Shown in pieces: positions 2,787 to 46,358 of a stretch of 62,764 bases of DNA. How positions within the stretch are numbered: the first letter of the stretch is position 1; each line of letters starts with the position of its first letter. Under the pieces are notes generated by a model that saw only the letters and a list, made by a program, of their open reading frames with translations, was not told the origin of the DNA and did not search any database. The position numbers were made by a program, and so were the translations under genes. This DNA is from a virus (taxonomy: Duplodnaviria > Caudoviricetes): positions 1 through 62,764 of IMG/VR virus record IMGVR_UViG_3300003868_000001; one strand, written 5' to 3'.

Positions 2787-4322
2787 TCATTTCGGAGTTC
2801 TCCCTGATGGGTTCGTGGTTTGACCGTTGGTTTTGTCACCACCCTTATCGTCGCCGTTCGGGTTGTTCGGGTCGTTTGGTTGAATGGCCGTGTTGGAGCC
2901 AGTCTCTGGCTTCCCGAACACGAACCCTTCTTTGTCTTCCTTCTCGGCCTCGGCCTGCTCTTCCTCGAAGGTTTTGGTGGTCATGCGGCGCTTCCGCGAC
3001 AGATCGTGCATGGACTTGGCGCTGATCGGCCAGCCAAGGTTCCGTGCGGTGGCGATTTCCACCATGGTCTGTCCGGTGAGCGGCATTTCACCGAATTCTT
3101 TGTTCGCTTGGACCTTGACCTCGTCAGGGTTCTCACCCATCCACTTGGCACAGATCTTCAGGATTTGCTCGAGGCCAGTCGCTCCAGTTTCAGCGATCTG
3201 GTTCATGTCTGCGGTGCGAGCAGCAACTCGGATGCGCAGGCTGTCACCGCTTTCACGAGAACGTGAAGTGCTGTCCAGCGTTTGGGCTCCCATCGAACTC
3301 GCGCGAGTCTCAAGGTTGATCAGCGCGTCTTTCTGCTCGCTGAGACCGTTGCTGTTCACGCCGACGTACTTGGCGTCACCTCCCATTGGGAGATCAAGGC
3401 GAGAACCAGCACCGACACGCACTTCATCGGTTTCATCGAAGTTGCCGCCGATAGTGACGAAGGTGTCTTGACCCTGCATGAACAGGTTCTGGCGATAGTC
3501 TGCTTCGGCGCGGTAGATCGCCATGCAGATGTTTCCGAGGTCGAGCAGCGGCGGGTCATCAACATCAGCAGTCACGTCGCAGGAGTTGATGAACACGAAC
3601 GGAATTTCTTCCAGCAGAGTTCCACGCCATGAAGGAGCAGTGAGACCTTCCTCGTTGTAGAGGTCCTCTACGAACACACCCTGACGATAGGTGCCTCTGG
3701 GTTCGTTGGCACGTTCACTGCCCAAGAGGAGGACGCGATACTTGTCCTTCCCTTCCCACTTGAAGCCTTCGACACGAACCTGTTCAGTTTCATCGAGGAC
3801 GACAAGGTTCAGCTTCTGCGGCACAAGCTGCTCAACGGAACCATCGTCCCAGTTGATGCAGCGCTCGGCCGTGTACGTCGCGAGGTAAGGCAGGTCTTCA
3901 CCGGGAGCAGGATTGGTCGGCAAGTCAGCCATCAGACCGATGCGTCCAGTCAGCAACTGCTCAGTATTGATGCGACGAAGAAGAACCGGCAGGCTCTCAC
4001 CTTGGCGCGACTTGATGTTCTCCATGGCTTTCGGCAGCTTGATCTCAGGAGGCTGAGAGTGCATCATGCCGATTGCCATTTGCACAGCTTCACGAGCGAA
4101 GTTCGGGAACCGCGCTCTCTGCTTGTACGACTGATAGGCTTTGAAACCGTTCGATTGAGCGTTGTTGACTGCGCCGTCACGAATGTGCGCCGTGGTCATC
4201 GGAAGATACAGAGCGCCCTTGTTCTTGACCGTGCGCTCGCCTTTGTAGGCGTCCCGCATGAGGGTCCAGTCAGCGGTTGCTGCAAGGTACTCTGGATGCT
4301 GTGATGCGAGGGTGCTGGTCAT
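2787..4322 (-). CDS. Portal protein (DUF4055-like)
   Basis: HPEY...W..MRDAYKGE...YLP...RARFPN motifs; follows TerL. Confidence 0.85.
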   Translation of the reverse strand: MTSTLASQHPEYLAATADWTLMRDAYKGERTVKNKGALYLPMTTAHIRDGAVNNAQSNGFKAYQSYKQRARFPNFAREAVQMAIGMMHSQPPEIKLPKAMENIKSRQGESLPVLLRRINTEQLLTGRIGLMADLPTNPAPGEDLPYLATYTAERCINWDDGSVEQLVPQKLNLVVLDETEQVRVEGFKWEGKDKYRVLLLGSERANEPRGTYRQGVFVEDLYNEEGLTAPSWRGTLLEEIPFVFINSCDVTADVDDPPLLDLGNICMAIYRAEADYRQNLFMQGQDTFVTIGGNFDETDEVRVGAGSRLDLPMGGDAKYVGVNSNGLSEQKDALINLETRASSMGAQTLDSTSRSRESGDSLRIRVAARTADMNQIAETGATGLEQILKICAKWMGENPDEVKVQANKEFGEMPLTGQTMVEIATARNLGWPISAKSMHDLSRKRRMTTKTFEEEQAEAEKEDKEGFVFGKPETGSNTAIQPNDPNNPNGDDKGGDKTNGQTTNPSGRTPK

Positions 4323-4369
4323 GCTTGTCAACCTACTCTGAAGACATCGCCCTTGGCAAGTCTTATTTG

Positions 4370-5881
4370 TCAATGATATCCAACGGTGGTCCCAGAAGAA
4401 CCGGGAGTTGCCACCCATCGGATGAGATAGCGGGTCTCGTCTGCAACGTGATCTTCAGCATCAGTATTGATGTCGTCCATGTTGTCCTCATCACGAGGAA
4501 GCACAGGGATGGTCTCGATGAAAGACGAGCAGTGGTCGAATACGAATAGGCCGGGTTTCTCACGAGGATAGAGTCGAAGTTCGTCTTTCACGAGTTTCAC
4601 GTTCGGATGAGCGTTTTTCAGTCTCTGACGCATTTGGGTCCAGCCTGTGGACCGGCTTCCCGGTCTTTTGTCGGCCGGGTTCCAGTTGATACCGGGATAA
4701 CGGAAACCATCGTCCATTCGGACCTTGACTTTCATGTCCGTGGCGATACAGTTGCCATTTTCGGCCGCAAAGATCTGAGAGTCGGCCACACCGGCTTTCA
4801 CACGGCACCAATTCTCTCCAGGACGTCTCCAACCCCATTCCAGTTCTCGTTTGACGATACCTTCACTGATTTCGGAAGCGAGCATGTCCAGCCCTTCGTT
4901 GGGCTTGCCTGTGCTGCCATACCACTCTCGAACGCGAATTACGTCGCCTTTCACGGTGGATTTCCACTTTCCATCAGGCATTTGGACGTCTGAACCGTCG
5001 GAAATGGCCCACCACCCAACAGAGAAGGGTTTCGAGGCTCCCCAGTCAAATGACCTGACAATCTTCCAATTGTCAGGTATCTCAAAAGGTACGAGAATGT
5101 TGTGTTTCGGCTCCCAGACGTCGTCGAACATGCCGCCAGCGACAATGTCCCAAGAACCGTCCAACCAAGCGCGTTTTTCGGCCTCATTTCGTGCAGAAGC
5201 CGCAATTTTCTGCTTGTAGTCGGGGTCTGCTTCCAAAAGCGCGATATTTTCGTCAATATGGCTGTGGATTGACAGACGGGTCGGTGCTTGGTTGCCATCG
5301 TCGTCCAGAATGTCGCGACGGACGATCATATTCATGCTGTTGGGCTTGAAACGGTGCTTCACCCAGTTGTGTCCAGGCCCATAAGGGTTCGTTGTCGCGC
5401 GAACCATACGCGGCATTCCCTTTTTCGAGCTCCGGCAGGTCGAGAACATTCGTTTGTAGCCGCTGTCACTGTGCCAGTTGCAGAGTTCTTCCCAGCCGAT
5501 CCACGGATATTCGTGTCCGTGATAGTTGTCATAGTCGTGGTCTTTGGCGAACTGACGAAGAAGAAGCTGCTCGCCAGTCGCGAACGTCCAAGTGTGTTCG
5601 GAATGGTTGAACTTCGCGTCCGGCCAGATTTGCGGGATCCACTTTTTCGTCTTCGAGATAACGTCCGTCAACTGCTTGTAGGTCTGCCGAAACAGAATGC
5701 CTTTCCAAGCTGCCCCATAGCCCTTGCCGACGTGCATACAAAAGGACATGAGGAGAGAGTCGGTCTTACCACCGCCGCGAGTGCCCTCGAACAGGACTTC
5801 GAAGATAGGCGTGGCACTCAAGAAAGCTTCTTGAGAGCCGGGCATAGGTTTCCAAATGACGTTATCAGGATACTGGGTCAT
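4370..5881 (-). CDS. terL: Terminase large subunit
   Basis: GTRGGGKT Walker A, IGWEEL Walker B, ATTNP, DWG and EDHVADETRY nuclease motifs. Confidence 0.95.
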   Translation of the reverse strand: MTQYPDNVIWKPMPGSQEAFLSATPIFEVLFEGTRGGGKTDSLLMSFCMHVGKGYGAAWKGILFRQTYKQLTDVISKTKKWIPQIWPDAKFNHSEHTWTFATGEQLLLRQFAKDHDYDNYHGHEYPWIGWEELCNWHSDSGYKRMFSTCRSSKKGMPRMVRATTNPYGPGHNWVKHRFKPNSMNMIVRRDILDDDGNQAPTRLSIHSHIDENIALLEADPDYKQKIAASARNEAEKRAWLDGSWDIVAGGMFDDVWEPKHNILVPFEIPDNWKIVRSFDWGASKPFSVGWWAISDGSDVQMPDGKWKSTVKGDVIRVREWYGSTGKPNEGLDMLASEISEGIVKRELEWGWRRPGENWCRVKAGVADSQIFAAENGNCIATDMKVKVRMDDGFRYPGINWNPADKRPGSRSTGWTQMRQRLKNAHPNVKLVKDELRLYPREKPGLFVFDHCSSFIETIPVLPRDEDNMDDINTDAEDHVADETRYLIRWVATPGSSGTTVGYH

Positions 5882-6237
5882 GACATTTCTCTCAGAACGA
5901 ACCAGCCATCAAAATCTGTAACTCCACCACGACTTGGATGAGGATCGTGAAACAGTTCATTCTTCTCACGATCCCATACAACCAAATGACGAATTCCTCG
6001 AGGAGAGATGCCTGATCGCCCAACGAAACGGGGCCAGTGATCTTTCTCACTAGGAAAGTAATCGAAAATGAAACCTTTGTTTTCAAGATCCTGAAAGAAA
6101 TCCATATTCCAGTTTTTGTCTTCTCCGATTGGATGGGGAAGACCTAAATCTCTCTGAGCCAACGTATAGACGACTGCGCGAGTGCAATCACCATTGGTTG
6201 TTTCTGTATGAAGAATCTGCTGATCGAATGTAATCAT
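5878..6237 (-). CDS. Hypothetical protein, possible Cys-His-Asp (C39-like) fold
   Basis: GDC..., RHLVVW, HDPHP motifs; ATGA-coupled to terL. Confidence 0.5.
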   Translation of the reverse strand: MITFDQQILHTETTNGDCTRAVVYTLAQRDLGLPHPIGEDKNWNMDFFQDLENKGFIFDYFPSEKDHWPRFVGRSGISPRGIRHLVVWDREKNELFHDPHPSRGGVTDFDGWFVLREMS

Positions 6238-6536
6238 GACATTTGCATCATGGCTTGGAGGGCGCTGGTTTCGAAGGTGGTCAGCCGCACGCCTTCGGTG
6301 GTTTTGAACTCGCTGATACGAACGCCGCGCAGGCGTTCCAGCCAGTCTCCTTCGGTGACGCGGTAGATAAACCGTCGTCCGTCCGTGAAAGCACCTTTCT
6401 GCGTGCCAAGCTGGACCCAGTGAATGTCAGCCTCATTCGACTTCAGCCAATAGCTGAGGTTACAAGGCGCGATCAAGATGAGAATGTGTGCCATGCCCTC
6501 AAGGTAGCTGGCTGACGTCACACAAGCAAGCCTCAA
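6234..6536 (-). CDS. Hypothetical protein
   Basis: Coupled ORF; start uncertain. Confidence 0.5.
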   Translation of the reverse strand: MRLACVTSASYLEGMAHILILIAPCNLSYWLKSNEADIHWVQLGTQKGAFTDGRRFIYRVTEGDWLERLRGVRISEFKTTEGVRLTTFETSALQAMMQMS

Positions 6537-6577
6537 ATTCCGGCGACCTGGAATGAATTGCCATAAAGTCCCATTCT

Positions 6578-6880
6578 TTACAGAAGTGAACCTTGCTCAT
6601 CCCCTGCTTCTTGTATTGAATTGCCAGCAGTTCGTCGTGACATAAGTTTTCTGACGAGGTCTTTTGAGGAGAGAGGGACCGCGCCATTTCTAATGGCTTG
6701 GTCCCTCTTCCCTTTGGAGATGTCGAAGTGCTCATGCCAGTGATCCTTGTGTTGTATCCACTTGTGCTGAACACCGATGAGGGTCATCATGGCGAGAAGT
6801 TCCTCGCGCGTGTCAGCGATGCAGTGGCACATTAGCATTCGCCCAAAGGGATGAACAGGGTCATCAACGTAGACGGTCAT
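6578..6880 (-). CDS. DUF4031 family protein
   Basis: MTVYVDD...MCH..AD..EEL...HFDI...R..AI..GA signature. Confidence 0.8.
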   Translation of the reverse strand: MTVYVDDPVHPFGRMLMCHCIADTREELLAMMTLIGVQHKWIQHKDHWHEHFDISKGKRDQAIRNGAVPLSSKDLVRKLMSRRTAGNSIQEAGDEQGSLL

Positions 6881-7164
6881 TTCGTCACCAGAATTTCGAT
6901 CTTCGCTTTGAAAAGCGTCATTTCGTTGAACCTGTCACCGGCTTTTTGGCTGGTGAATGGGATTCTTTTCTCGAGAGCGAGTTTCGTGAGCGGGTCGTCC
7001 ATTCGCTCGTAGATTTTCCTCTGCACATAGCCCAATGGCATGTCAGACAGATACCTCGTCGGGATTTCTCCCTGCGCTTCCACGTTTAGCAGGCGTTTTC
7101 TTTTCCTGAGTTCCTTGATCAGGTCCTCATCGCTGATTTCCATGAAGCGATAGTCGTCTATCAT
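6877..7164 (-). CDS. Hypothetical protein
   Basis: ATGA-coupled ORF. Confidence 0.6.
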   Translation of the reverse strand: MIDDYRFMEISDEDLIKELRKRKRLLNVEAQGEIPTRYLSDMPLGYVQRKIYERMDDPLTKLALEKRIPFTSQKAGDRFNEMTLFKAKIEILVTK

Positions 7165-7691
7165 CTTGGCTTCTTTCTGTTATTGGATTCAATGAACTTG
7201 TGCCACGGTTTCTGCACCTTCGGAGCGCCTTCCGTCGGACGCGGTTCTGCTGGTGGCTCTTTATAGAACATCAGCTCGCGGCGTTCCAGCTTTATGGAAG
7301 GCCACATGTGAACTTCATCAATGATCATCATGTGAGGTCTCGCGCCGTACATATGGCGATACGCTTCTTCCTTACTGAGAATTCGTTTCTCAATTCCTGA
7401 ATAGTCAACTTCTACCATCGGAGACGGACGACGCATTCGCTCAATCGCCTGCAATTGAGCCATGATCTGCCCAAGGGTTGCTCCATATCGTGGTTGGTCC
7501 CAAACAGAGCGGGCGCGCGGCAGACGAGACAAACGTTCTTTGAGGCGAATTTGGTCTATGTCTGGGATGGACACATTCTCGATAGAAGCACAGATCGGCT
7601 TCCCGTGCTTCTTACATACGCAGCCGCCTGTCTTGGTGTGAACGTGGTCACAGTACCAGAGGCGCTTGAGGTTGGGAAGGTCGCGGTTCAT
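7161..7691 (-). CDS. Hypothetical protein (Cys/His-rich N-terminus, PolA-like peptide)
   Basis: Start placed downstream of promoter at 7715-7743. Confidence 0.6.
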   Translation of the reverse strand: MNRDLPNLKRLWYCDHVHTKTGGCVCKKHGKPICASIENVSIPDIDQIRLKERLSRLPRARSVWDQPRYGATLGQIMAQLQAIERMRRPSPMVEVDYSGIEKRILSKEEAYRHMYGARPHMMIIDEVHMWPSIKLERRELMFYKEPPAEPRPTEGAPKVQKPWHKFIESNNRKKPR

Positions 7692-7714
7692 GTTCGCCTG
7701 CTTGGTATATGGCA

Positions 7715-7743
7715 AGGGTAAGGCGTGATTGGGTAAAAGACAA
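7715..7743 (-). promoter_or_regulatory. sigma70-like promoter
   Basis: TTGTCT-N17-TACCCT. Confidence 0.6.
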
Positions 7744-8050
7744 GTGCAAAATGTCCAGGGTTTGTCTTCTATTTTTGGATTGGTGATTATAGTGTCAGGT
7801 TGTGTGCGGGGGAGGAGTTAAGGAGCGCGGGCCGTGGGGGTGGAGGCCAGGAACGCGTCCTTGGGGCGGGGTGGCCTGCCCCTAGGGGGCAAGCGCAAGC
7901 AACAGACCGACCAGCGTGGGGTGTAACATATAAGCAACAGTTGCAACTGCTGCAATGGGGAAAAGGACTTGGGCCATATCTGGGTCTCCAGGGGTGCAGG
8001 GTTAAGGGGGTGGCCCCTGCCCCGTGTAGGGCAGGGGCAGGGGGTAGGCG

Positions 8051-8509
8051 CTACGCCTTGGCAGGCGTTGCCACAGGGGCAGGGGTGGCAGGGGCAGGGG
8101 CAGGCGTTGCCTTGGGCGCGGTGGCCTTGGCCTTGGGCGCGGTGGCCTTTGCCGCCACAGGGGCAAGCCAGCCCTGCTTGGCGTGGGTGAACCAGTTGGC
8201 GTGGCTGTGGGCGTTGCCATTGGGCTTGGCAACAGTGCCCCACCCCGCCGACGGCTGCTTGTAGGTGCTGCCAGCCTGTGCCCCTGCCAGCGCGGCGGCA
8301 TATTCCGCGGCGGTAAAGCCATTGGGCTTGGCCTTTGCCAGCGCCTTTGCCACGTTGTAGCAATAGGCGCGGATGCTGTTGCCGCCTTGCGCCTTGGCAG
8401 GCCACGGCCCCATGGAAAACAGGGGGGCCATGGGTGCCGGGGTGGCCTTGGGCGCGGTGGCCTTGGCGGTGGAGACGGCGGTGGTGGACTTTGCGTTGGA
8501 AGCGGACAT
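8051..8509 (-). CDS. Ala/Lys/Pro-rich basic protein in TC/GA-free island
   Basis: AAGG RBS; KATAPK repeats flanking a non-repetitive core; only one acidic residue. Confidence 0.65.
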   Translation of the reverse strand: MSASNAKSTTAVSTAKATAPKATPAPMAPLFSMGPWPAKAQGGNSIRAYCYNVAKALAKAKPNGFTAAEYAAALAGAQAGSTYKQPSAGWGTVAKPNGNAHSHANWFTHAKQGWLAPVAAKATAPKAKATAPKATPAPAPATPAPVATPAKA

Positions 8510-8665
8510 TTGAGTTTACCTTGTGTTACCGGGCTGCACCATTGCCGCCCCGGTAAGACCATGTATGGCCCCCAAATGTGGCAAGATTAAGGCGCATTGG
8601 TGCGATTTGATAAATAGTTTGTTGCTGAGTTGGAAACAGACTTGGACGGGGTTGGACCTGATGAT

Positions 8666-8755
8666 TGTGGCGGAATTAAGGCGGAACGGAGGCATTTTGA
8701 AGGCGAAGAAGATTGCGGCGGAATTGAGGCAGAAATGCGGCGGAATTGAGGCAGA
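8666..8755 (+). repeat. 20-bp direct repeats TGCGGCGGAATTGAGGCAGA
   Basis: Exact copies at 8714-8733 and 8736-8755; 17/20 copy at 8666-8685. Confidence 0.85.
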
Positions 8756-9007
8756 CCGAGCCGGAAGAAGAAGATGAGGAGGACCGACCTACCGAAGAAG
8801 ACCGAATCGTTAGGCGAGACTCGGTCAATAAGGAAATCGGTCAATATAGTCGTCCTCGCCGATGGAGGAAGAAGATTTGGAAGAAAAAGAAGAGCCATCG
8901 GTCCGAAGAAGATGAAGATGTAAGGCCTCGGTCGTCGGAGGAGTTTGAAGAACTGTCAATCAGCCCAAGGAGACGAGCGCCCCGAGGAGCGCCCGCCTTG
9001 GCTTCGG

Positions 9008-9214
9008 TCAGACGCCGGTGCGAGGATGCTGATTGCGGCTGAAGCTGGCACCGTAGGCGATCGCAGGCTTGCACACGTGGATCACGCCGCCGTCGCGCGA
9101 ATAAAGGCGTGTGAGCATGTCGACTTCGTCACGGAGCGCTGCCTTCGCCGAGGCCAGCTTGCCAGTGAACACCGAGCGACCGGCTGCGAGCGAGAGGGTG
9201 AGGGACTTCTGCAT
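9008..9214 (-). CDS. Small hypothetical protein
   Basis: AAAGG RBS before ATG 9214; own promoter at 9255-9283. Confidence 0.5.
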   Translation of the reverse strand: MQKSLTLSLAAGRSVFTGKLASAKAALRDEVDMLTRLYSRDGGVIHVCKPAIAYGASFSRNQHPRTGV

Positions 9215-9254
9215 GGATTGGCCTTTCTTACATTGGGCACCATTGCCCACCAAC

Positions 9255-9283
9255 ACACTACCACGGGGAAATTGCGAAAACAA
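9255..9283 (-). promoter_or_regulatory. sigma70-like promoter
   Basis: TTGTTT-N17-TAGTGT. Confidence 0.55.
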
Positions 9284-9441
9284 CCGTCAATTGTCGGCGT
9301 CTCCTTCTCTCTTTCCGCATCTTCTTCTTCCCATCCAGGTTTATCTGGACTTATCTCCATCCCCGCTATCCGAGGAAGATGAAGAAGACCTTGTTTTATA
9401 TGAGAGCATCCTCTTCAAGGCAATCGGATAGACCGACTCGG

Positions 9442-10080
9442 TCAATTGGCATCTTTATCTTCATCATCCACGGTGATCGCTTCCACCGGAGGAGTGATGT
9501 TCTTGGCTCGGCTGAACCGCTTCTCCCAATCGTCCACCGATGCCATCTCCGCAGGAGCGACGAGGACGCCTCCAGTGTGATTGACCTGGACTTCCTGCTT
9601 CTCCCGGTAGCCAGCGTCGTGCTTCTTGAGTTCGAGCTCGATGAGGCGGATGGGATAAATTGTCTCGATGGAGACGAGCCCTCCGTTGCGATCGTAGCTC
9701 TCCTTCTGCGTGCCGTTGAAGACGAGGTCCTGGTGATGCCCAATGAGTTTCTCTCGGTACTCCTCCTCGGCCATCATGAGGGCTTGAGCGAACTCCTCAT
9801 CCTTCGCGATGTGCGCTCGTACGCATTGGGTCGAGACTCCACAGGCAGCGGCGCTCTCTCCCATTCGTCCCCACTTCCGATACTCCTCGAGGAAGATGCC
9901 CTTCTCTCTATCTCCGAAGGCGATCCGCTCCATCTTGATCCGGGATCTCCAGTTCCCATCCCCATCCTGGTAATCCACAACGACTGGATGTGAGCGTCGA
10001 GCGAGGAGGGAGCGGGGGCGTTTCCGGATCTGGAAGCGTTGATCGTGCTTGTCCGCATAGTCCTCAATGTCGTCCGTCAT
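9442..10080 (-). CDS. terS: Terminase small subunit
   Basis: HTH-like FLEEY...SAAACGVS...DEEFA, then LIELELK...YREKQEVQVNHTGGV, typical of TerS. Confidence 0.75.
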   Translation of the reverse strand: MTDDIEDYADKHDQRFQIRKRPRSLLARRSHPVVVDYQDGDGNWRSRIKMERIAFGDREKGIFLEEYRKWGRMGESAAACGVSTQCVRAHIAKDEEFAQALMMAEEEYREKLIGHHQDLVFNGTQKESYDRNGGLVSIETIYPIRLIELELKKHDAGYREKQEVQVNHTGGVLVAPAEMASVDDWEKRFSRAKNITPPVEAITVDDEDKDAN

Positions 10081-10367
10081 GTTTCTCACTTGTCTGTACG
10101 CGAATGAAGAGAATGAAGATCTCCCGATTTAAGAGTTCTACCTCACGGAAGCCCAAGTGAGCAAGCCGCATATCTCCCGATTTCAGTACCATCTTAAGTG
10201 ATGTCAGGTGTATCCTACCGATTACCCGTCAACCCGTTGTTTTTGTTACCATCTACTTACTCCTCTTTATTTAATAAATAGTAAATATACTTAATTGACA
10301 AAACCCATCCAACCAATCCAGCAGCGGACCACCGCCGGAGGAGGCTGGCAACTTTGGCTCCCTCATG

Positions 10368-10383
10368 GTTAATTTATCATTAA
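10368..10383 (-). promoter_or_regulatory. CtrA-binding consensus site
   Basis: Minus strand TTAA-TGATAAA-TTAAC = TTAA-N7-TTAAC. Confidence 0.55.
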
Positions 10384-10409
10384 TCCTTAACATTCGTCAG
10401 AATAAACCG

Positions 10410-10438
10410 TTGTAAAAGAACACTGTAAAGAGTAACCT
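10410..10438 (+). promoter_or_regulatory. Promoter of the only plus-strand operon
   Basis: TTGTAA-N17-TAACCT upstream of ORF 10472. Confidence 0.5.
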
Positions 10439-10471
10439 GAGCGCACACTTTAATCAGATAAAGAGATCGCA

Positions 10472-11131
10472 ATGCCCCTGCTAATTCCACACCAGCCAGA
10501 ACGTCCAAGGATTGACCCAGTCACGGGAGACATCCTTTTGTTCGCAACGATGCCCAATCCGGACATGAAGAAGAAGCAGTTCAAGGTCTGCGAGCCTCCT
10601 TCACAGAAAGCCCAGTGCAGAATGTACCGCGCAGTCCGCCAAGGCTTCATCGGCAGACAGGTGGTTGTATCCGACATCTATGACTATTGCATGGATGGAA
10701 TATACTCGGAGGTGTCCAAGACACAGATGGGATACAACGTCACAGCGACGACTTTGTACGAGCCGAGACTGCTGGTGAACAACAAGACGATCGGAAAGCC
10801 AGCCCTGACCTATACCTTCCGTAACCTGCTGGATTTCCAGTACGGACTTGAATGGCAGATCTGCACTTGGTTGCGGAAATTTTTGATTGCAACTGCCGCG
10901 CTCGAGGACGATATTGTAATTGACAGAGATTACATTGCCGAGGAACTCGATATCCTTGCGAGAGCCACTCCGACGGAATACATGGAGACCTACGAGAGCA
11001 AATTCGACAGCTTCTTCATGGACGAACCAGAATGGTCTGTCCTTCTCATTGGGCAGAAAGAGGATTTACCTGCGATGCCCAAGAAGCCAGCGGCTCCTCC
11101 GCCTCCGCCTCCGAGGAGATTTGACAAATGA
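10472..11131 (+). CDS. Hypothetical protein (plus strand)
   Basis: 219-aa ORF with no long competing minus-strand ORF; Pro-rich tail. Confidence 0.75.
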   Translation: MPLLIPHQPERPRIDPVTGDILLFATMPNPDMKKKQFKVCEPPSQKAQCRMYRAVRQGFIGRQVVVSDIYDYCMDGIYSEVSKTQMGYNVTATTLYEPRLLVNNKTIGKPALTYTFRNLLDFQYGLEWQICTWLRKFLIATAALEDDIVIDRDYIAEELDILARATPTEYMETYESKFDSFFMDEPEWSVLLIGQKEDLPAMPKKPAAPPPPPPRRFDK

Positions 11132-11355
11132 TCCACATGTCGAATCTGAAGCAATGGTTGGAGACCAATCTTCCTCTGGAGCCTCGACGCAAGGGAGAAA
11201 GACTTGCGGAGTTTCAGGATAGAGAATTGGCGTGGAAGCGAATGATCCACGCCAAATATCTAGAGTTGTATCCCAAGGAGCCAGAGCGGAAACCTGGAAT
11301 GCCGAGAAATCTCGGCTGGGTCTGGATCAGTGAAACTGACCTTCGTCCTTCTTGA
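11128..11355 (+). CDS. Hypothetical protein (plus strand)
   Basis: ATGA overlap with previous gene; GAGGAG RBS. Confidence 0.6.
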   Translation: MIHMSNLKQWLETNLPLEPRRKGERLAEFQDRELAWKRMIHAKYLELYPKEPERKPGMPRNLGWVWISETDLRPS

Positions 11356-11593
11356 ACATCTTGCCGAGGAACGAGTCCAGTCCACCGGAAGTTTCACGCA
11401 CCTCAGCAATCGCCGCAGTCATCTCGTCAAGCCGATTGAAGATGTCTGCGAGCGCCTGCATGGCGTATTCCTTCGCATCAGCGGCATCTTCGGGGCGACC
11501 GAACGAGGTCTCCTTCTGATACTGGATGATCCGAAACTCGACCTCCTCCGATAGCAGGTCGCACTTCTTGCGGAGTTCACAAACTTTGCACAT
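11327..11593 (-). CDS. Hypothetical protein (MCxVCE family)
   Basis: AAAGGAAAG RBS; helical; N-terminus resembles 12852-13118. Confidence 0.65.
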   Translation of the reverse strand: MCKVCELRKKCDLLSEEVEFRIIQYQKETSFGRPEDAADAKEYAMQALADIFNRLDEMTAAIAEVRETSGGLDSFLGKMFKKDEGQFH

Positions 11594-12167
11594 GCTTCTT
11601 TCCTTTCATGAAGCCAAACACAGCGATACCCGAGGCGAGCAACCAAGCCGCCGCTGGGACTGGAACAGGAGACACCGGGGGTTGCACCACAGGAGGCGTC
11701 CCGCCGCCTGTGCAGCACCACACCACAGGCACAGGGTCCACAGGCCTCCAGGGCGGCTCTGACGGCGTCCATACAGGCTCCACAACTGGTCCATAAACCA
11801 CAGGCACAGGCAGAGGGTCAGCGAACACCACCCAGTTCTGGCAGACGTCCAACTTGAACATGATGTAATGAACACCATCTTGTTCAAAGCGGTATCCTTC
11901 ACCAGACTGGTCCTCCGCCAAGATCGCAGAGTACCCCATTGCATAGGGAACTCCGTCACGAGCGTACGACATCTTCCGGACGATGGACCCAGCCGGAACG
12001 GTCATACGTTCCGGCTGTCCCTTGGGCACTCCGAACTCATCGACCGCCCATTCATATTCGCACGCTCCATCACAAGGAGCGCCGCCCGGAGTATAGTACG
12101 ACATCGTAGAGGCCGAAGCCTCTGACCCAAGAAGGATCAGGAGCATCACGCTAAAGAAGCTGAACAC
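11577..12167 (-). CDS. Secreted protein with VPLPA-CTERM-like sorting signal
   Basis: Signal peptide ending ASA; Pro/Val-rich stalk; C-terminal VPVPAAAWLLASGIAVFGFMKGKK. Confidence 0.75.
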   Translation of the reverse strand: MFSFFSVMLLILLGSEASASTMSYYTPGGAPCDGACEYEWAVDEFGVPKGQPERMTVPAGSIVRKMSYARDGVPYAMGYSAILAEDQSGEGYRFEQDGVHYIMFKLDVCQNWVVFADPLPVPVVYGPVVEPVWTPSEPPWRPVDPVPVVWCCTGGGTPPVVQPPVSPVPVPAAAWLLASGIAVFGFMKGKKHVQSL

Positions 12168-31447: not shown

Positions 31448-32097
31448 CCTTGAATTGGTCCTTCCGACCAGTCATCGTAGCCAAACGGGTGTTCCATGCC
31501 GTCGACTGCCTTATTGTGAGGCTCTGTGGACGTGTTGGTTGGCGCGGCCTGCCCCATAGTACCACCAGCCGCACCACAGGGCAGGGCAGGGGCAGGCGTT
31601 GCGCCCTTGGCAGCACCTACCCCACCCGCCGCACCAGCACCAGCCTCCAGCGCCTTCTGAGCGTTCGCAATAATGTTGTCCAACAGCCGCAAAGCAAACT
31701 CCAGCTGCTGAGTGCTTTGCCAGTCCGAGAGAATGCAGCAGAACTGATACTCCAGGTCAGGCAGGTTGTTGGCTTTCTTGAAGCGAGCGTTCAGTTCGTC
31801 GATGTTGTCCGGCGGCTCGATCGACAACGCATAGACTGCGTCATAGTTGGTGATCATCTTCAAGACATAGGTGCGAGCCTTCGCCAAGTCTTGCAGGCCG
31901 TTTTTCTTCCACCACCGCGAGACGTACTTCGTGGCGCAGCCTTCCAGATAACCGAGGCCAGCCTCGATCACCCAGTCCCAGTGCTGATACTCGGCCTGAT
32001 AGTGTTCGCCACCTTCTTGGGCTACGAACTTGATGTTCTTGCACAGACACATCTTCTTGTCATGGCCGCAGGTGTCACAGTTCGTGTTGCCCATCAT
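31444..32097 (-). CDS. DUF3310 (SaV-like) protein with low-complexity tail
   Basis: QEGGEHY...QHWD...LGYLEG.A.KY.SRW.KKNG..DL.KA..Y. Confidence 0.8.
   Translation of the reverse strand: MMGNTNCDTCGHDKKMCLCKNIKFVAQEGGEHYQAEYQHWDWVIEAGLGYLEGCATKYVSRWWKKNGLQDLAKARTYVLKMITNYDAVYALSIEPPDNIDELNARFKKANNLPDLEYQFCCILSDWQSTQQLEFALRLLDNIIANAQKALEAGAGAAGGVGAAKGATPAPALPCGAAGGTMGQAAPTNTSTEPHNKAVDGMEHPFGYDDWSEGPIQG
31524..31633. repeat. 110-bp dispersed element, copy 1
   Basis: Ungapped alignment with 46196-46305; four identical blocks. Confidence 0.85.
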
Positions 32098-32648
32098 TCT
32101 GCTCCTGCATCCGGAAGGTAGTGCCACGAATGATCTTTGATGAGGTAGTACACATCAATGATCGCTTCGGGATACTTGTGACGATACTTGAGCATGTAGT
32201 TCTCTACCGCCAGACGCTTCGTTTCCATGTTGCGGTTGCCCAACATGAGCTGATCACGGACATAGCAGTAGAACTCGAGCATGTCCAGCCCATGAAGCCA
32301 CTTCACTTCGTGTTCGTTCAGGTCCTGGATCGCGTCGTGTCCAAAGACCTGTTCGTTCATGTGCATCTCGATCTGCATCTGAACGTCGTTGTTCTGCACC
32401 CCGGCTTTCTTGGCGGGATGAGGCATGTCACCGGTGAGACGTTCCGGAATGTCGTGCTGCACCACGGCACGAATGAGCGAACCAGAAGCTGTCGGGTTCA
32501 AGATCAACAGCATCGTCAGCATGTTGAAGGTGTGCATCCCAACAGAGTGGGAGCCGATGCCTGGAGAAGCGTGGGTCCGTTCGACCCGCGCCCCTTCCCG
32601 AGCAAACTTGATGCGTTGAACAACGTCCTCAAGAAAATATTCCATCAT
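32094..32648 (-). CDS. HD-domain nucleotide phosphohydrolase (YfbR-like)
   Basis: R.H...HSVGMH...HDIPE..TGD.P...D.LE. Confidence 0.85.
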   Translation of the reverse strand: MMEYFLEDVVQRIKFAREGARVERTHASPGIGSHSVGMHTFNMLTMLLILNPTASGSLIRAVVQHDIPERLTGDMPHPAKKAGVQNNDVQMQIEMHMNEQVFGHDAIQDLNEHEVKWLHGLDMLEFYCYVRDQLMLGNRNMETKRLAVENYMLKYRHKYPEAIIDVYYLIKDHSWHYLPDAGAE

Positions 32649-33667
32649 GCTCTCCGTGCCAACCATTCAACGCAAGCGCGGCTCCAGTCAGGAGCGGCGA
32701 TCTGCTGCGCGAGAACCATGGCTTTCGCCACCCGCGCAGGGTCTTCCTTGTCTTTCCAGGCCATCCAAGACTGGTACATCGGCACCACCGTCTTCTTGAA
32801 AAACTTGTCCTGGAAGCCCATCACCGCACCTTGGGTCATGAACATGTCCAGGTCCTGGAACCACGCCTCGATTGGGCCGTTGACGATCGGCGTCGCACGC
32901 ACTTCGCCCAAAGAGTACGGGTCCATCCCTGGAGCGTGCTGGGTCACGTTGCCGTGCTTGTCCAGAGTGTTGTGATAGGCGTGAAAGTTGGTGCTGATCT
33001 GTTCGTAGATGCCCATCGGCACGCCGACCCACGCAGACATCACTTCCTGCAACACCGAGAAGTGAACGGCATTCGCACCGTAGGCACCCCAGATCATGTC
33101 GTTGCTGCGATTGAAGACGTACATGTCCAGCTTGCCATAGGGGCTGATGCGGAACGTGCAGATCAGGTTGCAGGGAAAATCCTTGCCGTCCATGCCGAGG
33201 TCAGCAGAAGCGTCCCACATCTGAAGAACGATACGACGGTCGTCGGGGTTCTTCTTGAGCAGGGTGGCAATGGTTGCAAGCTGATCGATACCGCCGATCT
33301 CGAAGCCGCCGTCGCTGTGCTGGATAGTCGCTTCGAAGTGAACCCTCCAGCGATAGCCATAGGCACCATGGAAGTTCACGCCGTCGTCAGTGTAGTTGGC
33401 AATGCTGCCAGCGAACTGAGAGACCCACGCCACATCACGACGACCAGCCAGCATCCACAGGCTTTCCATGAAATGAAAGTAGGGATTGGCATCGCGTTCC
33501 GGATAGAACAGAACACGTTCTTCAGGATGAGCATAGGTGGTCGTCACAGACCCCGGAAAGAGCGTGACAGGGCCGTTGCGAGAGTCGCGATTAACACCTT
33601 CAGCTTTCAGCGCTTGAAGCCCAAGGAGAAGGGCTTCGCTGACATTGCGGGCAGAGATAACTTTCAT
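32645..33667 (-). CDS. Thymidylate synthase homologue, probable dUMP hydroxymethylase
   Basis: SRNG, ANPYFH..E..W, YGYRW, DFPCN, RSND..WG..GAN; Asn rather than the Asp of T4 gp42 at the specificity position; flanked by hmU-modification genes. Confidence 0.8.
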   Translation of the reverse strand: MKVISARNVSEALLLGLQALKAEGVNRDSRNGPVTLFPGSVTTTYAHPEERVLFYPERDANPYFHFMESLWMLAGRRDVAWVSQFAGSIANYTDDGVNFHGAYGYRWRVHFEATIQHSDGGFEIGGIDQLATIATLLKKNPDDRRIVLQMWDASADLGMDGKDFPCNLICTFRISPYGKLDMYVFNRSNDMIWGAYGANAVHFSVLQEVMSAWVGVPMGIYEQISTNFHAYHNTLDKHGNVTQHAPGMDPYSLGEVRATPIVNGPIEAWFQDLDMFMTQGAVMGFQDKFFKKTVVPMYQSWMAWKDKEDPARVAKAMVLAQQIAAPDWSRACVEWLARRA

Positions 33668-34950
33668 GCGAGAACTCCATATTGATCGAACATCAGATCT
33701 TCGTATTTCTTTCTGACGCCGGGGTCGTCTACCCCTGTTTCGGTTACGATGTTGCCGTGGGCAAGATCGATGAGACGCTGCGCGACCGCGACACGGTCGA
33801 ACATGGGAAGGATTTGCCGAGCCTGATCACGATAGATCATGGCTTGGTTGCGATCCATATTGCCAGCTTCCAGGACGATCTCGGCATAGTGTTCGGGATC
33901 ACCATTGGCAACGCCGAGATCGATGTAGTGCTGTCCGGCGACGAACAGTTCGTTGCCCATACCACGAGTCTGTGCGACAGGAACGCAGCCGTTGATCATG
34001 GCGTCCACGACGACACGGTTCCAGTGGCCTCCGACCGCAGAGTACTTCGCCGACCACGAAGGGTCAACCAGAACTCGGGCGCTGGTCAGCATTTCCAGAA
34101 CCTGCTCGCTGTTCCAGTAATCGTGATGGGTCATGCCGTTGGTCTCAGCAGCTTCCCAGAACTTCATCGATGAGAACCAGTCATCGTTTTGATCGTGGAA
34201 ATAGTTCGGCTTGCACTTGTCTTCGCTGGTCATGTACTGATATTCGATACCCTTGCCAGCGATCTCACGCAGTTCTTCAGGATGCTTGTCGGGCATGTAA
34301 GCGATTGCTTCCACCAGTTCGTGGACATGCTTCCAAGCCTTGAAGGTTTGCATGTTGACGAAACCTTTCCGCTTGTTCTCCCACGGCTGGATATCGCGGA
34401 TAGGCATGAACTGCGGGTTGACCACCATCGCCCGAGGGATAGCAAGGTGAGCGGCACCGTTCAAGGCACAGGCATGGACGCAGGCCAGCCCAGACAGCTT
34501 GTCCAGGATATGCAGCAGATGCGGCGCACCGGACTTGACGTTGCCGTCATGAACGAAGGCGATCTGCTTCACATTTGGGTTGAGGTCGTAGAGATCTGGC
34601 CAGCGGTCGTTGCCGAGATGTTGCTTGTTCTTGGGCGGGACAGGCACGGTCCAGATAACCATGTCGTAGCCATTCAGGATTTGGATTGCAGTCCTGAGAC
34701 CTGCGGTCGTCTTGTAAGCCAGCCGGTTCTCGGCTTTGAAGTTCCAGCCTTTGCCTTGGTTGAACCGGATGCCACTGTGACCAATTTCGAAGTCACCGTC
34801 TTTGCCCATCGTGGCCGCTCGATCGGCGTACACCAGTTCTTTGAGATCGACTTTGTGGCCTAGTTCTTTCAAGCCGCCGATCAACTGTTCTGTGTGATTG
34901 ATAATGCCCCCGAGGTCCATGCAGGAATGGAGGGCAACACATATTTTCAT
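33664..34950 (-). CDS. GT-B (GT4-like) glycosyltransferase, putative DNA-modifying
   Basis: GGII.H...L..GLKELGH.V N-terminus; VLVDPS...VVVDAM.NGCVPV C-terminus; ATGA-coupled to hydroxymethylase. Confidence 0.8.
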   Translation of the reverse strand: MKICVALHSCMDLGGIINHTEQLIGGLKELGHKVDLKELVYADRAATMGKDGDFEIGHSGIRFNQGKGWNFKAENRLAYKTTAGLRTAIQILNGYDMVIWTVPVPPKNKQHLGNDRWPDLYDLNPNVKQIAFVHDGNVKSGAPHLLHILDKLSGLACVHACALNGAAHLAIPRAMVVNPQFMPIRDIQPWENKRKGFVNMQTFKAWKHVHELVEAIAYMPDKHPEELREIAGKGIEYQYMTSEDKCKPNYFHDQNDDWFSSMKFWEAAETNGMTHHDYWNSEQVLEMLTSARVLVDPSWSAKYSAVGGHWNRVVVDAMINGCVPVAQTRGMGNELFVAGQHYIDLGVANGDPEHYAEIVLEAGNMDRNQAMIYRDQARQILPMFDRVAVAQRLIDLAHGNIVTETGVDDPGVRKKYEDLMFDQYGVLA

Positions 34951-34979
34951 GTCCAAGGCTCCCATGTGCGGTATAAACC

Positions 34980-35008
34980 ACCTTAGCCCTGGACGTGGCA
35001 AAAGACAA
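34980..35008 (-). promoter_or_regulatory. Promoter of GT-hydroxymethylase-PolA operon
   Basis: TTGTCT-N17-TAAGGT. Confidence 0.65.
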
Positions 35009-35012
35009 GTGC

Positions 35013-35246
35013 TTACTTGTCTGAGTCGCGGTCGTTATTTAATGACATGCCCTTGCCGATGATGATTGCAATAGCAAGGAAGGGGCCGAAGCCTGACAGC
35101 AGAAACATAAAGAAGGCTTCTTCTGGACTGACTTTCTGCTTCTTTCCATCAACCAGTTGGCGGTCATACCATGTGATGAAAACGTAAAACCAGACCGCCC
35201 ACCAAAGGGCGATCCAGAACCAGTTGCTGATGATCCAGTTGATCAT
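35013..35246 (-). CDS. Small membrane protein
   Basis: Two hydrophobic helices; coupled to upstream gene. Confidence 0.55.
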   Translation of the reverse strand: MINWIISNWFWIALWWAVWFYVFITWYDRQLVDGKKQKVSPEEAFFMFLLSGFGPFLAIAIIIGKGMSLNNDRDSDK

Positions 35247-36154
35247 TTGATCCGATACCTCGATCTCGGTTTGCCCTGCAGAAGACGGACACGTTCATAC
35301 TTGTCGAACTCACAGAGCGCGAATTGTATGTCGGTCGGTGCCAGCTTGAACGGGTGTGCGAACCACGCACTCTGATTGATGTACAGATCTTGAATGACCT
35401 GTCCAGCATGAGCCTCTTTCAAGGATGACTGGTCAGTCAAACCCAAGACACGAGCAGCACCGCGCAGAGCGCCCGGTCCGATCGGCGTCCATTCCCACCA
35501 GTCTCTTGGGTAAGAGAAGGTGCCGTCCTCCGGGCTTTCAAACACGCTGTTCCAGAAGCCAGTGTAGGTCGTGTCCAGGAGAACTTCCTTGGTCATGAAC
35601 CCTGTGCCGCCGAAGCCCATGAGAGTTCGCATGGAGGTCGCGACTTTCTCCCAGCTTTGGGATACAGTTGCGAGTTGGATCAGGTTCGGCGTTGCCGCGT
35701 GCAAACCCTTGAGAAATATATCCACCACGACCTCTTGCTTCGGGGCGGAGATTCCTTGATTTGTGATGACATATGCGCCTGTGAACACTCTCTCGCCGTC
35801 GGCCAGTCTGTCCGCCGCGAGATCTTTGATGCCATCAAAATCGAAGTCCTCATAGTCTTGCCACCCCACTGCTTCTGCAAATTCCCAAGTGCCGAAGTAT
35901 CTGAATAGCGCGCAGTTCATGAGAACTGAACGGCGGTCATCATGGAAATTCTTCCCGTAGAAAAGCTTCCTCAGCTGATCGCTGGTCCGGTCGTGATGCC
36001 GCCGGACGTTTGTGAACTTATAGGTTTGAAGGATAGGATCTTCGGTCCAAGCCTTGACATCAAACCCAACGGAAAGGCCCGCCTCCTTCCGGAGACGGAC
36101 CTCTTCGCGTTCGTTGAGGTAATCGAAGAACGCTGGTGCTTTGAGCAGTTCCAC
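35243..36154 (-). CDS. aGPT-Pplase1 / 5-hmdU DNA kinase-like protein
   Basis: ER...R......WT.DPIL..YKFTNV.R..DRTS; GPGA.RG; LCEFDKY.R signatures. Confidence 0.8.
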   Translation of the reverse strand: MELLKAPAFFDYLNEREEVRLRKEAGLSVGFDVKAWTEDPILQTYKFTNVRRHHDRTSDQLRKLFYGKNFHDDRRSVLMNCALFRYFGTWEFAEAVGWQDYEDFDFDGIKDLAADRLADGERVFTGAYVITNQGISAPKQEVVVDIFLKGLHAATPNLIQLATVSQSWEKVATSMRTLMGFGGTGFMTKEVLLDTTYTGFWNSVFESPEDGTFSYPRDWWEWTPIGPGALRGAARVLGLTDQSSLKEAHAGQVIQDLYINQSAWFAHPFKLAPTDIQFALCEFDKYERVRLLQGKPRSRYRIK

Positions 36155-36157
36155 CGA

Positions 36158-36910
36158 TTACTCGGCAGCAGCCGGAGCAGCGGCCTTGTCGGCCTTGGCT
36201 TTCGCAGCAGCTTCGGCAGCCGCGTTCTTCTCGGCGACCTTCGCAGCCTTGGCAGCTTCGCGTTCGGCTTTCTTGGCCGCGTTCGCCTTTTCACGCTCGG
36301 CCTTGGCAGCTTCGCGCTCTTCGGCCTTGCGGTTCTTGCCGAGGTCGGGGTCTTCCAGGTTGTGCTTCTTGTACCACGCGGCACGACGTTCGGCGTATTC
36401 GGCGTCGGTCGGTTCCGTGACGGTCATCAGGCCAGCAGCTTCCCAGTTGATGATGTCCCACGCCAGAGTGCCTTCGCCCTCGATCGCATCGATCACCAAC
36501 ATACCGTCCTTGTAGTTGGGCCAGCGATGACCGCGACCCTCAGCGCCCGTGTGCTGTTTCACGATGTTGACCACCGAGAACATCTTGCGGGTCGGACGTT
36601 TCACATACTGCGCAGCAGCCGGTTTCGCCAGCTTGCGGTCCTTGGGTTCCTTCGGAGCCTTCGGTGCCTTGGCAGCTTTCGGCGCGGGCGCTTCAGCGCC
36701 ACCGGCCTCGGCCTTGACGGTCTCGTCGAACTTCTGCAGGGCTTTCCAGGTCTGCACGACGGCAGTCTCGTGGTCCTTGAACGCCTTGATCGTGGCGACG
36801 CCGAGGTTGGTCGCAACGAGGTTGCGCAGGGTCATCAGGTTTTCTATGCTTTCAGACTGGAGCGACGCTTCGGTGTGCTCTTTGTCCATGAACTTGATTT
36901 TGTCGGTCAC
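36158..36910 (-). CDS. Ala/Lys-rich hypothetical protein
   Basis: GGAG RBS before GTG 36910; strongly biased codons; basic AK-rich tail. Confidence 0.7.
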   Translation of the reverse strand: MTDKIKFMDKEHTEASLQSESIENLMTLRNLVATNLGVATIKAFKDHETAVVQTWKALQKFDETVKAEAGGAEAPAPKAAKAPKAPKEPKDRKLAKPAAAQYVKRPTRKMFSVVNIVKQHTGAEGRGHRWPNYKDGMLVIDAIEGEGTLAWDIINWEAAGLMTVTEPTDAEYAERRAAWYKKHNLEDPDLGKNRKAEEREAAKAEREKANAAKKAEREAAKAAKVAEKNAAAEAAAKAKADKAAAPAAAE

Positions 36911-36966
36911 GATTGACTCCATTTCTACGATGCGGTTCTTTGGCAACACATGCCGCCAACACTCGA

Positions 36967-36995
36967 ACACTAACCCGTCGATGTATTGGCGGCAA
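36967..36995 (-). promoter_or_regulatory. sigma70-like promoter
   Basis: TTGCCG-N17-TAGTGT. Confidence 0.55.
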
Positions 36996-46195: not shown

Positions 46196-46305
46196 CTGTG
46201 GACGTGTTGGTTGCAAGCCCTTGGGCAATGGTGCCACCAGCGGCCCCGCAGGGCAGGGCAGGGGCACGCTTACCACCCCTTGCCGCTACCCTACCACCCG
46301 CCGCA
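46196..46305. repeat. 110-bp dispersed element, copy 2 (intergenic)
   Basis: Ungapped alignment with 31524-31633. Confidence 0.85.
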
Positions 46306-46358
46306 GCTAAACCGCGTCCCTGGACGTCCCTACGCATCGTTGAGTTTGCTTTCCACGT

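Follow-up and report, generated by a model that had tools for sequence, protein, structure and literature searches.

Selection acting at the nucleotide level has purged the dinucleotide TC, and with it the complementary GA, from a small two-gene cassette between the terminase genes terS and terL of the viral record IMGVR_UViG_3300003868_000001; the whole stretch of DNA analysed, 62,764 nt long, is referred to here as the window. The borders of the purged DNA match those of a promoter-to-terminator unit. The pattern suggests a need to keep this single cassette as ordinary DNA, in a phage whose gene content indicates that it probably decorates its thymines. The existence of any modification, its TC context, and the reason why the cassette would have to be unmodified are inferred; the purge itself and its borders are observed.

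TC and GA together number 9782 in the window, or 15.6 per 100 nt. Within the TC/GA-poor stretch (7988-8471), the 483 nt of positions 7989-8471 should hold about 75 at that rate, or about 48 given the region's own base composition; they hold five, one TC and four GA, at 8189, 8250, 8304, 8372, and 8415, and none falls in 7988-8188. The 202-nt gap from 7987 to 8189 is the longest of the contig, for which an expected longest gap is about 54 nt, and the next two measure 117 and 116 nt. Among the ten reverse-complement dinucleotide classes, the ratio of the longest gap to its expectation over the contig is 3.7 for GA/TC and at most 1.6 for the others. An earlier, sequence-only reading of this DNA had reported such a desert (none in 7989-8188, five in 7989-8471), along with seven motif copies and dense G-runs. 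All of this is borne out: GGCAGGGG occurs at 8030, 8036, 8078, 8087, and 8093, CCCCTGCC at 8014 and 8281, and eleven runs of at least four G can be counted. Most GGCAGGGG copies are the CCT-GCC (Pro-Ala) codons of a protein's C-terminal tail read on the opposite strand, and the remainder builds a hairpin after its stop codon. A G-quadruplex reading was therefore discarded, the plus-strand G4-type patterns being the reverse of these codons and of the hairpin.

The second and third longest TC/GA-free runs, 31530-31646 and 46202-46317, are two copies of a G+C-rich element, 74% identical over 110 nt. Both are coding repeats for Gly/Ala/Pro-rich peptides ending in ...(P/A)TNTST and close with CCAACACGTCCACAG; one forms the C-terminal part of a DUF3310 protein, the other a 52-aa open reading frame (ORF) behind a tail gene. 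The word CCCTGCCC has nine sites in the window where 1.5 are expected, all of them in the cassette or in these two elements, and equivalent runs were seen in four related records (G001, G007, G008, and G010).

The protein just mentioned is encoded by a 152-aa ORF at 8051-8509 on the minus strand, of which codons 14 to stop (420 nt) lie inside 7989-8471. Codon tests were run on this part with 20,000 trials each. Resampling with phage codon usage while keeping the protein gave 26.2 +/- 3.9 TC/GA (minimum 12), and permuting the ORF's own codons among synonymous positions gave 13.3 +/- 2.0 (minimum 6); no trial in either test reached the five observed. An explanation by amino-acid composition alone, which the sequence-only reading had named, together with a recoding that has no phenotype, as what would refute its proposal, was thus tested and is contradicted. 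The lowest count attainable in this part is 1, and none of the five observed dinucleotides spans a codon 3|1 boundary. At 2.2 TC/GA per 100 nt, the ORF is the sole outlier among 80 contig ORFs (15.9 +/- 2.5; next lowest 10.4), with a permutation z of -4.4 against a mean of +2.2 for the others, and under codon permutation of homologous ORFs GA/TC is the consistently negative class among the ten dinucleotide classes. The ORF caller was crude, and the codon-usage reference of these tests includes some false frames (e.g., 7818-8405 and 35942-36916); recognised false frames were dropped from the codon table used for the strand test described below, and the picture was unchanged. A GGA-type word stands upstream of 28 of 64 ORFs, but the caller's ORF starts are too unreliable for a conclusion from this count.

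The ORF is a real gene. Its conserved core (residues ~27-118) is found in virus-only proteins: 85 of 102 candidates from a large protein collection are homologues at E <= 1e-3, with 61-100% identity over the 92-residue core, and an exhaustive search yielded 29 representatives. An alignment of 29 sequences contains 28 invariant core columns, the Ala/Pro/Lys/Thr-rich tails being variable. The protein does contain the single acidic residue counted by the sequence-only reading (Asp 0, Glu 1), next to 15 Lys and 7 Asn.

Relatives show how far the purge can go. The gene lies between terS and terL in all 18 loci found first, and 37 distinct ORFs, five of them cut by contig ends, were assembled from viral and metagenome loci and the window. 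Their TC/GA density per 100 nt is 0 in 5 (354-435 nt), below 1 in 11, at most 2.2 in 14, 3-5 in 13, and 5-11.4 in 10; the rest of each relative's locus runs at 12-19. All 11 relatives' ORFs with less than 1 per 100 nt encode neither Asp nor Glu, because TC/GA is kept out so strictly, and the strict lineages encode Ser by AGY codons only. The TC/GA-free runs extend into non-coding DNA, reaching 785 nt in locus L003 (where the ORF is 435 nt) and 721 nt in L020; in records G006, G007, G008, G013, and G019 they measure 693, 622, 677, 648, and 616 nt, where the expected longest is about 50-60 nt. The non-coding flanks and the acid-free ORFs join the codon tests in supporting what the sequence-only reading had proposed, a DNA-level cause with the protein's composition partly a by-product. 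For comparison at the whole-genome scale, 18 large or complete relatives were fetched. The gene is present in 13 records including the window, and in 12 of these no TC/GA-free run anywhere in the record is longer than the one on the gene; in the remaining one, G001, the run on the gene ranks only third. None of the five records without the gene (G014-G018) has a TC/GA-free run of at least 95 nt. A 200-nt CC/GG-free run in the distant record G016, considered as a possible desert of another class, is merely an A+T-rich intergenic stretch.

The desert has the outline of a transcription unit. In strict relatives, it begins 110-130 nt before the ATG and ends 85 nt past the stop codon in some lineages and 210-225 nt past it in others. 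At the upstream border lies a conserved promoter-like block, with an AACAAAnTGTT-type palindrome in front of it (together 8510-8640 in the window, minus strand; defined by alignment of 13 upstream regions), and the next promoter-like sequence, belonging to the operon toward terL, starts where the desert ends. Promoter function is a prediction; a simple sigma-70 scan returned nothing in the 8510-8640 block. Directly after the stop codon stands a G+C-rich hairpin (8013-8038, minus strand; arms 8013-8022 and 8029-8038) built of the CCCCTGCCC motif, which is counted 9 times against 1.5 expected; no T run follows it, and L003 has the same hairpin after its stop. The second gene, 3' of the first, is a 31-aa hydrophobic ORF (7882-7977, minus strand) that holds four TC/GA. 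Equivalent small hydrophobic ORFs of 31-61 residues lie inside the deserts of G006, G007, and G013, and one was read by eye in L003.

Farther upstream is a leader or spacer that is pyrimidine-rich on the sense strand (8600-8960, minus strand), with CTTCTTC-type runs that relatives keep at the equivalent position. Over 8600-8799 the plus strand has 32 GA and 0 TC; hence the sense strand upstream of the cassette is packed with TC while the template has none. The leader contains three 20-nt direct repeats of TGCGGCGGAATTGAGGCAGA type (8666-8755), whose copy number varies between strains, since one 22-nt unit at 8714 is missing from contigs of other sequencing runs and breaks occur in several contigs at 8663-8683. 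Some relatives (L003 at 80-300; the upstream part of G008 37490-38667) have tandem repeats or perfect-palindrome arrays of GTAACAAATTGTTAC type just 5' of the cassette promoter, and the upstream arrays of L003, L049, and L061 are themselves nearly TC/GA-free.

What could make TC special in this phage is suggested by four genes that resemble a thymidine-hypermodification module. A thymidylate-synthase homologue (32645-33667, minus strand; PF00303, E 3.3e-21; phrog_5131, E 1.5e-118), 45% identical to Pam3 gp52, is a candidate dUMP hydroxymethylase. A gene resembling aGPT-Pplase1 or an amino-acid:DNA-transferase (35243-36154, minus strand; PF18723, E 2.6e-32, 112.7 bits, cut-off 25) encodes a protein 27-29% identical to its counterparts, gp50 in PaMx11 and the gene annotated aGPT-Pplase1 in Pam3. 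Between the two is a GT1-family glycosyltransferase (33664-35001, minus strand; PF00534, E 5.8e-7, 29.6 bits, cut-off 26.4), and an HD-domain 5'-deoxynucleotidase-like protein, 25% identical to Pam3 gp53, is encoded at 32094-32666 (minus strand; PF13023, E 5.7e-5). The gene order, beside DNA polymerase I, is that of Pam3 and PaMx11. All four genes are found in ten further cassette-bearing records, G011 and G021 being fragments that end short of the region, while G014 has neither glycosyltransferase nor cassette and G015-G018 have none of the four genes. Among the first five relatives, two records reach the module region and both have it. Adjoining the aGPT-Pplase-like gene is a 270-aa ORF (36158-36970, minus strand) with Ala/Lys/Glu-rich low-complexity tails and no Pfam family; it is Glu-rich, unlike the cassette protein, and its DNA is not TC/GA-poor.

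Thymidine hypermodification is described as sequence-specific in a passage that called the motifs unknown in 2018 (PMC5889632). In another paper, restriction-resistant sites of phages M6, ViI, and phiW-14 share TG/TC, which is attributed to the 5hmdU DNA kinase (PMC6449724), and a further report describes a phage T-dioxygenase that prefers NTC, in a clade linked to glycosyltransferases (PMC13229309). Restriction sites with a protected context need no avoidance, and palindrome avoidance therefore tests the context indirectly. In the window, 6-bp palindromes containing TC are nearly at expectation (356 observed, 380 expected; 0.94), and the observed/expected ratio is 0.44 for TG-only, 0.42 for TA/TT-only, and 0.29 for T-free palindromes. 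Avoidance of the TC class is significantly weaker in 11 of the 12 gene-bearing records, G001 being the exception, and in one of the five that lack the gene. PaMx11, whose thymidine hypermodification is proven, serves as a positive control because its TG (0.86) and TC (0.77) palindromes are spared, in agreement with the published TG/TC motif, the other classes standing at 0.20 and 0.03. The claim of the sequence-only reading that this region must stay unmodified thus gains indirect support, from the presence of the module and from TC palindromes alone escaping avoidance; the modification itself is a supposition drawn from these same data. Two deficits stand out beside these ratios: GTAC is nearly gone from G001 (0 vs 75) and G002 (1 vs 99) but not from the window (120 vs 153), and the T-free palindromes GCCGGC, GGCGCC, and GGGCCC are each absent from the window against 6-13 expected. 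Together with a shortage of GANTC, these deficits would fit restriction by hosts that varies from one relative to another.

The two strands of the cassette have not been purged alike. Sense-strand GA outside GAN codons, which is template-strand TC, is absent from 24 of the 37 ORFs, where 6-13 would be expected in each. Summed over the 37, such sense GA amounts to 92 against 355 expected and sense TC to 358 against 654 (Wilcoxon p = 0.0017). In L031, L010, and L058-L060, non-GAN sense GA is gone while sense TC stands at its expected level; a smaller set (L052, L054, L050, L015, and L038) shows the opposite tendency. The purge thus begins with the template strand and takes in both strands in strict lineages only. 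In vitro, bacterial RNA polymerases are blocked by bulky groups in the major groove (PMC4838386), and phage T modifications act on T7 RNA polymerase differently in the template and the non-template strand (PMC11550810). Since the template is purged first, and given these two polymerase papers, transcription is favoured as the process that needs unmodified DNA; the evidence points to transcription of the cassette, not a pac site or origin, behind the purge.

The following mechanism can be envisioned. Phages of this group would hypermodify thymidine in a TC context, with the thymidylate-synthase-like hydroxymethylase, the aGPT-Pplase/amino-acid:DNA-transferase-like enzyme, and the glycosyltransferase as candidate enzymes. 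A cassette without TC would then stay ordinary DNA within a decorated genome; on the minus strand it would comprise, in order, the promoter/operator block, the gene for a small basic protein that may be winged-helix-like, the hairpin, and the gene for a small hydrophobic peptide. Because of the strand asymmetry and the position of the desert borders, we propose that ordinary DNA is needed for the cassette to be read by RNA polymerase and its regulators, probably at the moment of expression from an injected, fully modified genome. For the core of this account, that TC is the modification context and that the cassette is kept free of modification, we would give just short of an even chance. A more far-reaching version can be sketched, in which TC hypermodification hinders host RNA polymerase on the template, leaves the injected genome largely unreadable except for the purged cassette, and makes the basic winged-helix protein, with the membrane peptide, a bootstrap product by which the decorated genome is licensed or protected, with the loss of Asp and Glu forced; as a whole, this is unlikely.

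Several observations weigh against the transcription reading or its premises. Every other phage gene is TC-rich, yet must be transcribed too, and no phage RNA polymerase was found among the ORFs scanned, which do not include every ORF. The purge is graded and not universal: 10 of the 37 ORFs carry 5-11 TC/GA per 100 nt, and L055, L004, L042, and L015 show no avoidance beyond that of their own codons. G001 has the whole module, yet a weak desert and no palindrome contrast, and across 12 records the size of that contrast shows no significant correlation with desert length (Spearman 0.38, p = 0.23). The first 50 kb of PaMx11 show no desert of any dinucleotide class. The TC context is drawn from sequence statistics only, and some of these disagree with it: GANTC is depleted though it contains TC (80 in the window against 213 expected from a third-order or 381 from a first-order model; 228/335 observed/expected in G001 and 149/240 in G002), and TCGA stands at 376/445 in the window, 204/329 in G001, and 227/324 in G002. 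No P-loop 5-hmdU DNA kinase was found, in that tblastn with Pam3 gp49 gave no match in the window and no kinase family appeared in the part of the ORFs scanned. The relatives are phylogenetically related, and G011 and G012 look like one phage, so that record counts are not independent.

Selection on the transcript itself could produce much of the same pattern, if the cassette mRNA had to lack GA (and in strict lineages also UC), for example to escape an endoribonuclease of host or phage origin, or to keep a very strongly translated message free of Shine-Dalgarno-like GGAG/GAGG words. The desert borders do match a transcription unit, sense GA is purged first and most widely (the 24 of 37 ORFs with none), and sense GA-free runs, which take in the pyrimidine-rich leader, are 503 nt long in the window and reach 1060 nt in L003 and 835 nt in L007. 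We nevertheless consider such RNA-level selection unlikely. GA and TC are reverse complements, and one cause acting on double-stranded DNA accounts for the loss of both where an RNA cause does not; the desert already begins before the promoter-like block, and about 200 nt of tandem repeats still farther upstream fall within it in L003, L049, and L061; and the genome-wide exemption of TC palindromes would be left unaccounted for. We know of no ribonuclease with GA or UC dinucleotide specificity.

The cassette might instead be the part of the genome that enters the cell first, kept unmodified so that modification-dependent nucleases cannot attack it before its product is made. By analogy there is precedent for this: the passages concerned describe T5 and BF23 as sensitive only when sites are placed in the first-step-transfer (FST) region (PMC10644984) and Murciavirus as avoiding motifs in its leading region (PMC12455610). 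The cassette, equipped with a promoter-like block and a hairpin, resembles an early unit that could act autonomously, and it adjoins the packaging genes. Against this, four sequencing runs, all present as contigs, showed no place where molecules start or stop, the 91-bp end repeat of the contig is located elsewhere, nothing suggests two-step injection, a nuclease directed at modified DNA would still cut the remaining genome on entry, and a bias toward the template strand is not predicted. Protection of a leading end is accordingly a poor prospect, of about the same low probability as selection on the transcript.

The sequence-only reading had favoured a site: a pac or terminase-loading element, a first-injected end, or an origin that must be recognised on unmodified DNA, the ORF being incidental. 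The stretch does lie between terS and terL in all relatives examined, with repeats and palindromes nearby. These roles found no support. The desert tracks the borders of a two-gene cassette and not a repeat array, the ORF is conserved as a protein (the 28 invariant columns in 29 sequences), and the purging of the template strand first has no place in a recognition-site model. Better pac-like candidates lie outside the desert: GACCGAGT words and a TTGACCGAGTCGGTC palindrome at the terS stop, which are TC/GA-rich, cluster between terS and the cassette (window 8819-8843 and 9421-9444; also in G001, G002, G006, and G013), with seven copies within 1.4 kb in G002 and four within 50 nt in G006. They are candidate sites for TerS or a regulator, although in the window the word is not above chance (22 one-mismatch matches, 17.8 expected), and terS itself has normal TC/GA density. 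A pac site or origin is, on balance, very unlikely to be what the purge serves.

A mutational footprint is more improbable still. A TC-specific cytosine deaminase or other context mutagen, acting on an often single-stranded and highly transcribed region, would turn TC into TT on both strands and Asp/Glu codons into Asn/Lys codons. The protein is indeed Lys-rich, has its share of Asn, and is nearly free of Asp and Glu, and AA/TT slightly exceeds what permutation predicts for some ORFs (z +1.2 in the window, +1.8 in L004, +2.8 in L013). In the strictest ORFs, however, AA/TT is not raised (z +0.3 in L003, -1.1 in L020), and no other phage gene is affected. The zeros are absolute over 616-785 nt and have sharp borders across lineages whose core proteins are 36-51% identical to that of the window, and therefore indicate selection, not drift under bias. 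Finally, that the desert is a by-product of an Ala/Pro/Lys/Thr/Gly-rich, acid-free composition plus codon bias is scarcely credible: composition does lower the expectation for the 420 nt to 26 from about 66 at the genome rate, and the contig's two other long gaps also sit in Gly/Ala/Pro-rich coding repeats, but both codon tests reject it, the non-coding flanks of strict relatives are equally TC/GA-free, and homologues of the same fold and similar composition span 0 to 11.4 TC/GA per 100 nt.

If the main reading is right, a hypermodification context can be read from sequence alone by two independent signs, the palindromes that escape avoidance and the dinucleotide purged from a cassette. This would also be the first phage found to leave a defined stretch of its otherwise decorated genome as ordinary DNA, and it would mean that modifications exact a cost on some process, probably transcription, which the phage manages gene by gene. 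It would, moreover, be a clean natural case in which selection on nucleotides dictates what a protein is made of. The conserved 152-aa protein also stands out as one that probably has a key early or regulatory role in a widespread environmental phage group.

The window is a whole virus contig, with a 91-bp exact repeat at its ends and nearly all of its genes on the minus strand. The cassette is flanked by terL (4370-5881, minus strand; phrog_2, E 4.4e-33) and terS (9442-10089, minus strand; phrog_4044, E 2.4e-21), the latter with 19-24 TC/GA per 100 nt. No close cultured relative was found: positions 4000-12000 have no DNA match, and the 152-aa ORF no protein match, in a cultured-phage collection. 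Rfam (gathering threshold) and ARAGORN detected no known RNA or tRNA in the window. The sequencing runs that carry an RNA-Seq label are, by the tool's own account, probably DNA. At 10060-10157, just 5' of the terS start, a 62.6-kb assembly contig from a run that is possibly the source of the record stops at 10089 and restarts at 10128; several variant contigs of 41-61 nt, a 4-nt indel, and increased summed depth appear there as well. Either a variable site or a feature related to a genome end could account for this.

Comparison with known proteins and phages places these observations in context. The 152-aa protein belongs to no Pfam or PHROG family, a sequence profile search of the PDB gave a chance-level match only, and its neighbours in the ESM Atlas are virus-only hypothetical clusters at 0.85. 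The AlphaFold model of the core (pLDDT 87-91) has three main helices, a short fourth helix before them, flanking strands, and a wing-like hairpin. Foldseek found no match to the model at E <= 0.001. VIA-align returned mostly winged-helix domains, such as those of JetA/MukF kleisins, ORC, forkhead, and H1.8, at Z 3.9-5.8 (best 5.8, many at Z 4-5), which is below the level the tool calls informative. Because such Z values fall, by the tool's own warning, within the range of common arrangements, "winged-helix-like" is kept as a lead only. The three-helix core, the wing-like hairpin, and the Lys/Ala/Pro-rich flanking tails recall linker histones of the H1 type, winged-helix proteins with basic tails; unlike them, the phage protein matches no sequence family and its structural similarity stays below the informative level, and its DNA binding is hypothetical.

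Sequence-specific thymidine hypermodification is the system of M6, ViI, phiW-14, PaMx11, and Pam3-type modules. The window's thymidylate-synthase homologue, aGPT-Pplase/amino-acid:DNA-transferase-like gene, and HD nucleotidase stand next to DNA polymerase I in an order shared with Pam3 and PaMx11. The dinucleotide context published for such pathways begins with T (PMC6449724), and the palindromes give TG and TC in PaMx11 but TC alone here. Unlike Pam3, the window has a GT1 glycosyltransferase at the place of Nmad5, and no P-loop DNA kinase was found in it. The passages and abstracts consulted on hypermodified phages mention no modification-free island, PaMx11 has none in its first 50 kb, and a full-text search found no precedent for an ordinary-DNA island in a decorated phage genome. 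Pathways of the 5mYOX97 type, with a T-dioxygenase and a glycosyltransferase, would share with it thymine modification at TC and the glycosyltransferase link (PMC13229309); they differ in that no dioxygenase appears among the window ORFs scanned, and the hydroxymethyl group would here come from the thymidylate-synthase homologue, before replication.

A parallel in genome organisation exists with the FST region of T5 and BF23 and the early region of Murciavirus, where motif avoidance is likewise limited to a small early-gene part of the phage genome (PMC10644984, PMC12455610). The avoided words there are host restriction sites with 4-7 specified bases. The cassette does not follow that pattern: 4-bp palindromes such as GGCC and GCGC are present inside its ORF, and what is avoided, throughout a cassette of 0.5-0.8 kb, is the dinucleotide TC/GA, apparently the phage's own modification context.

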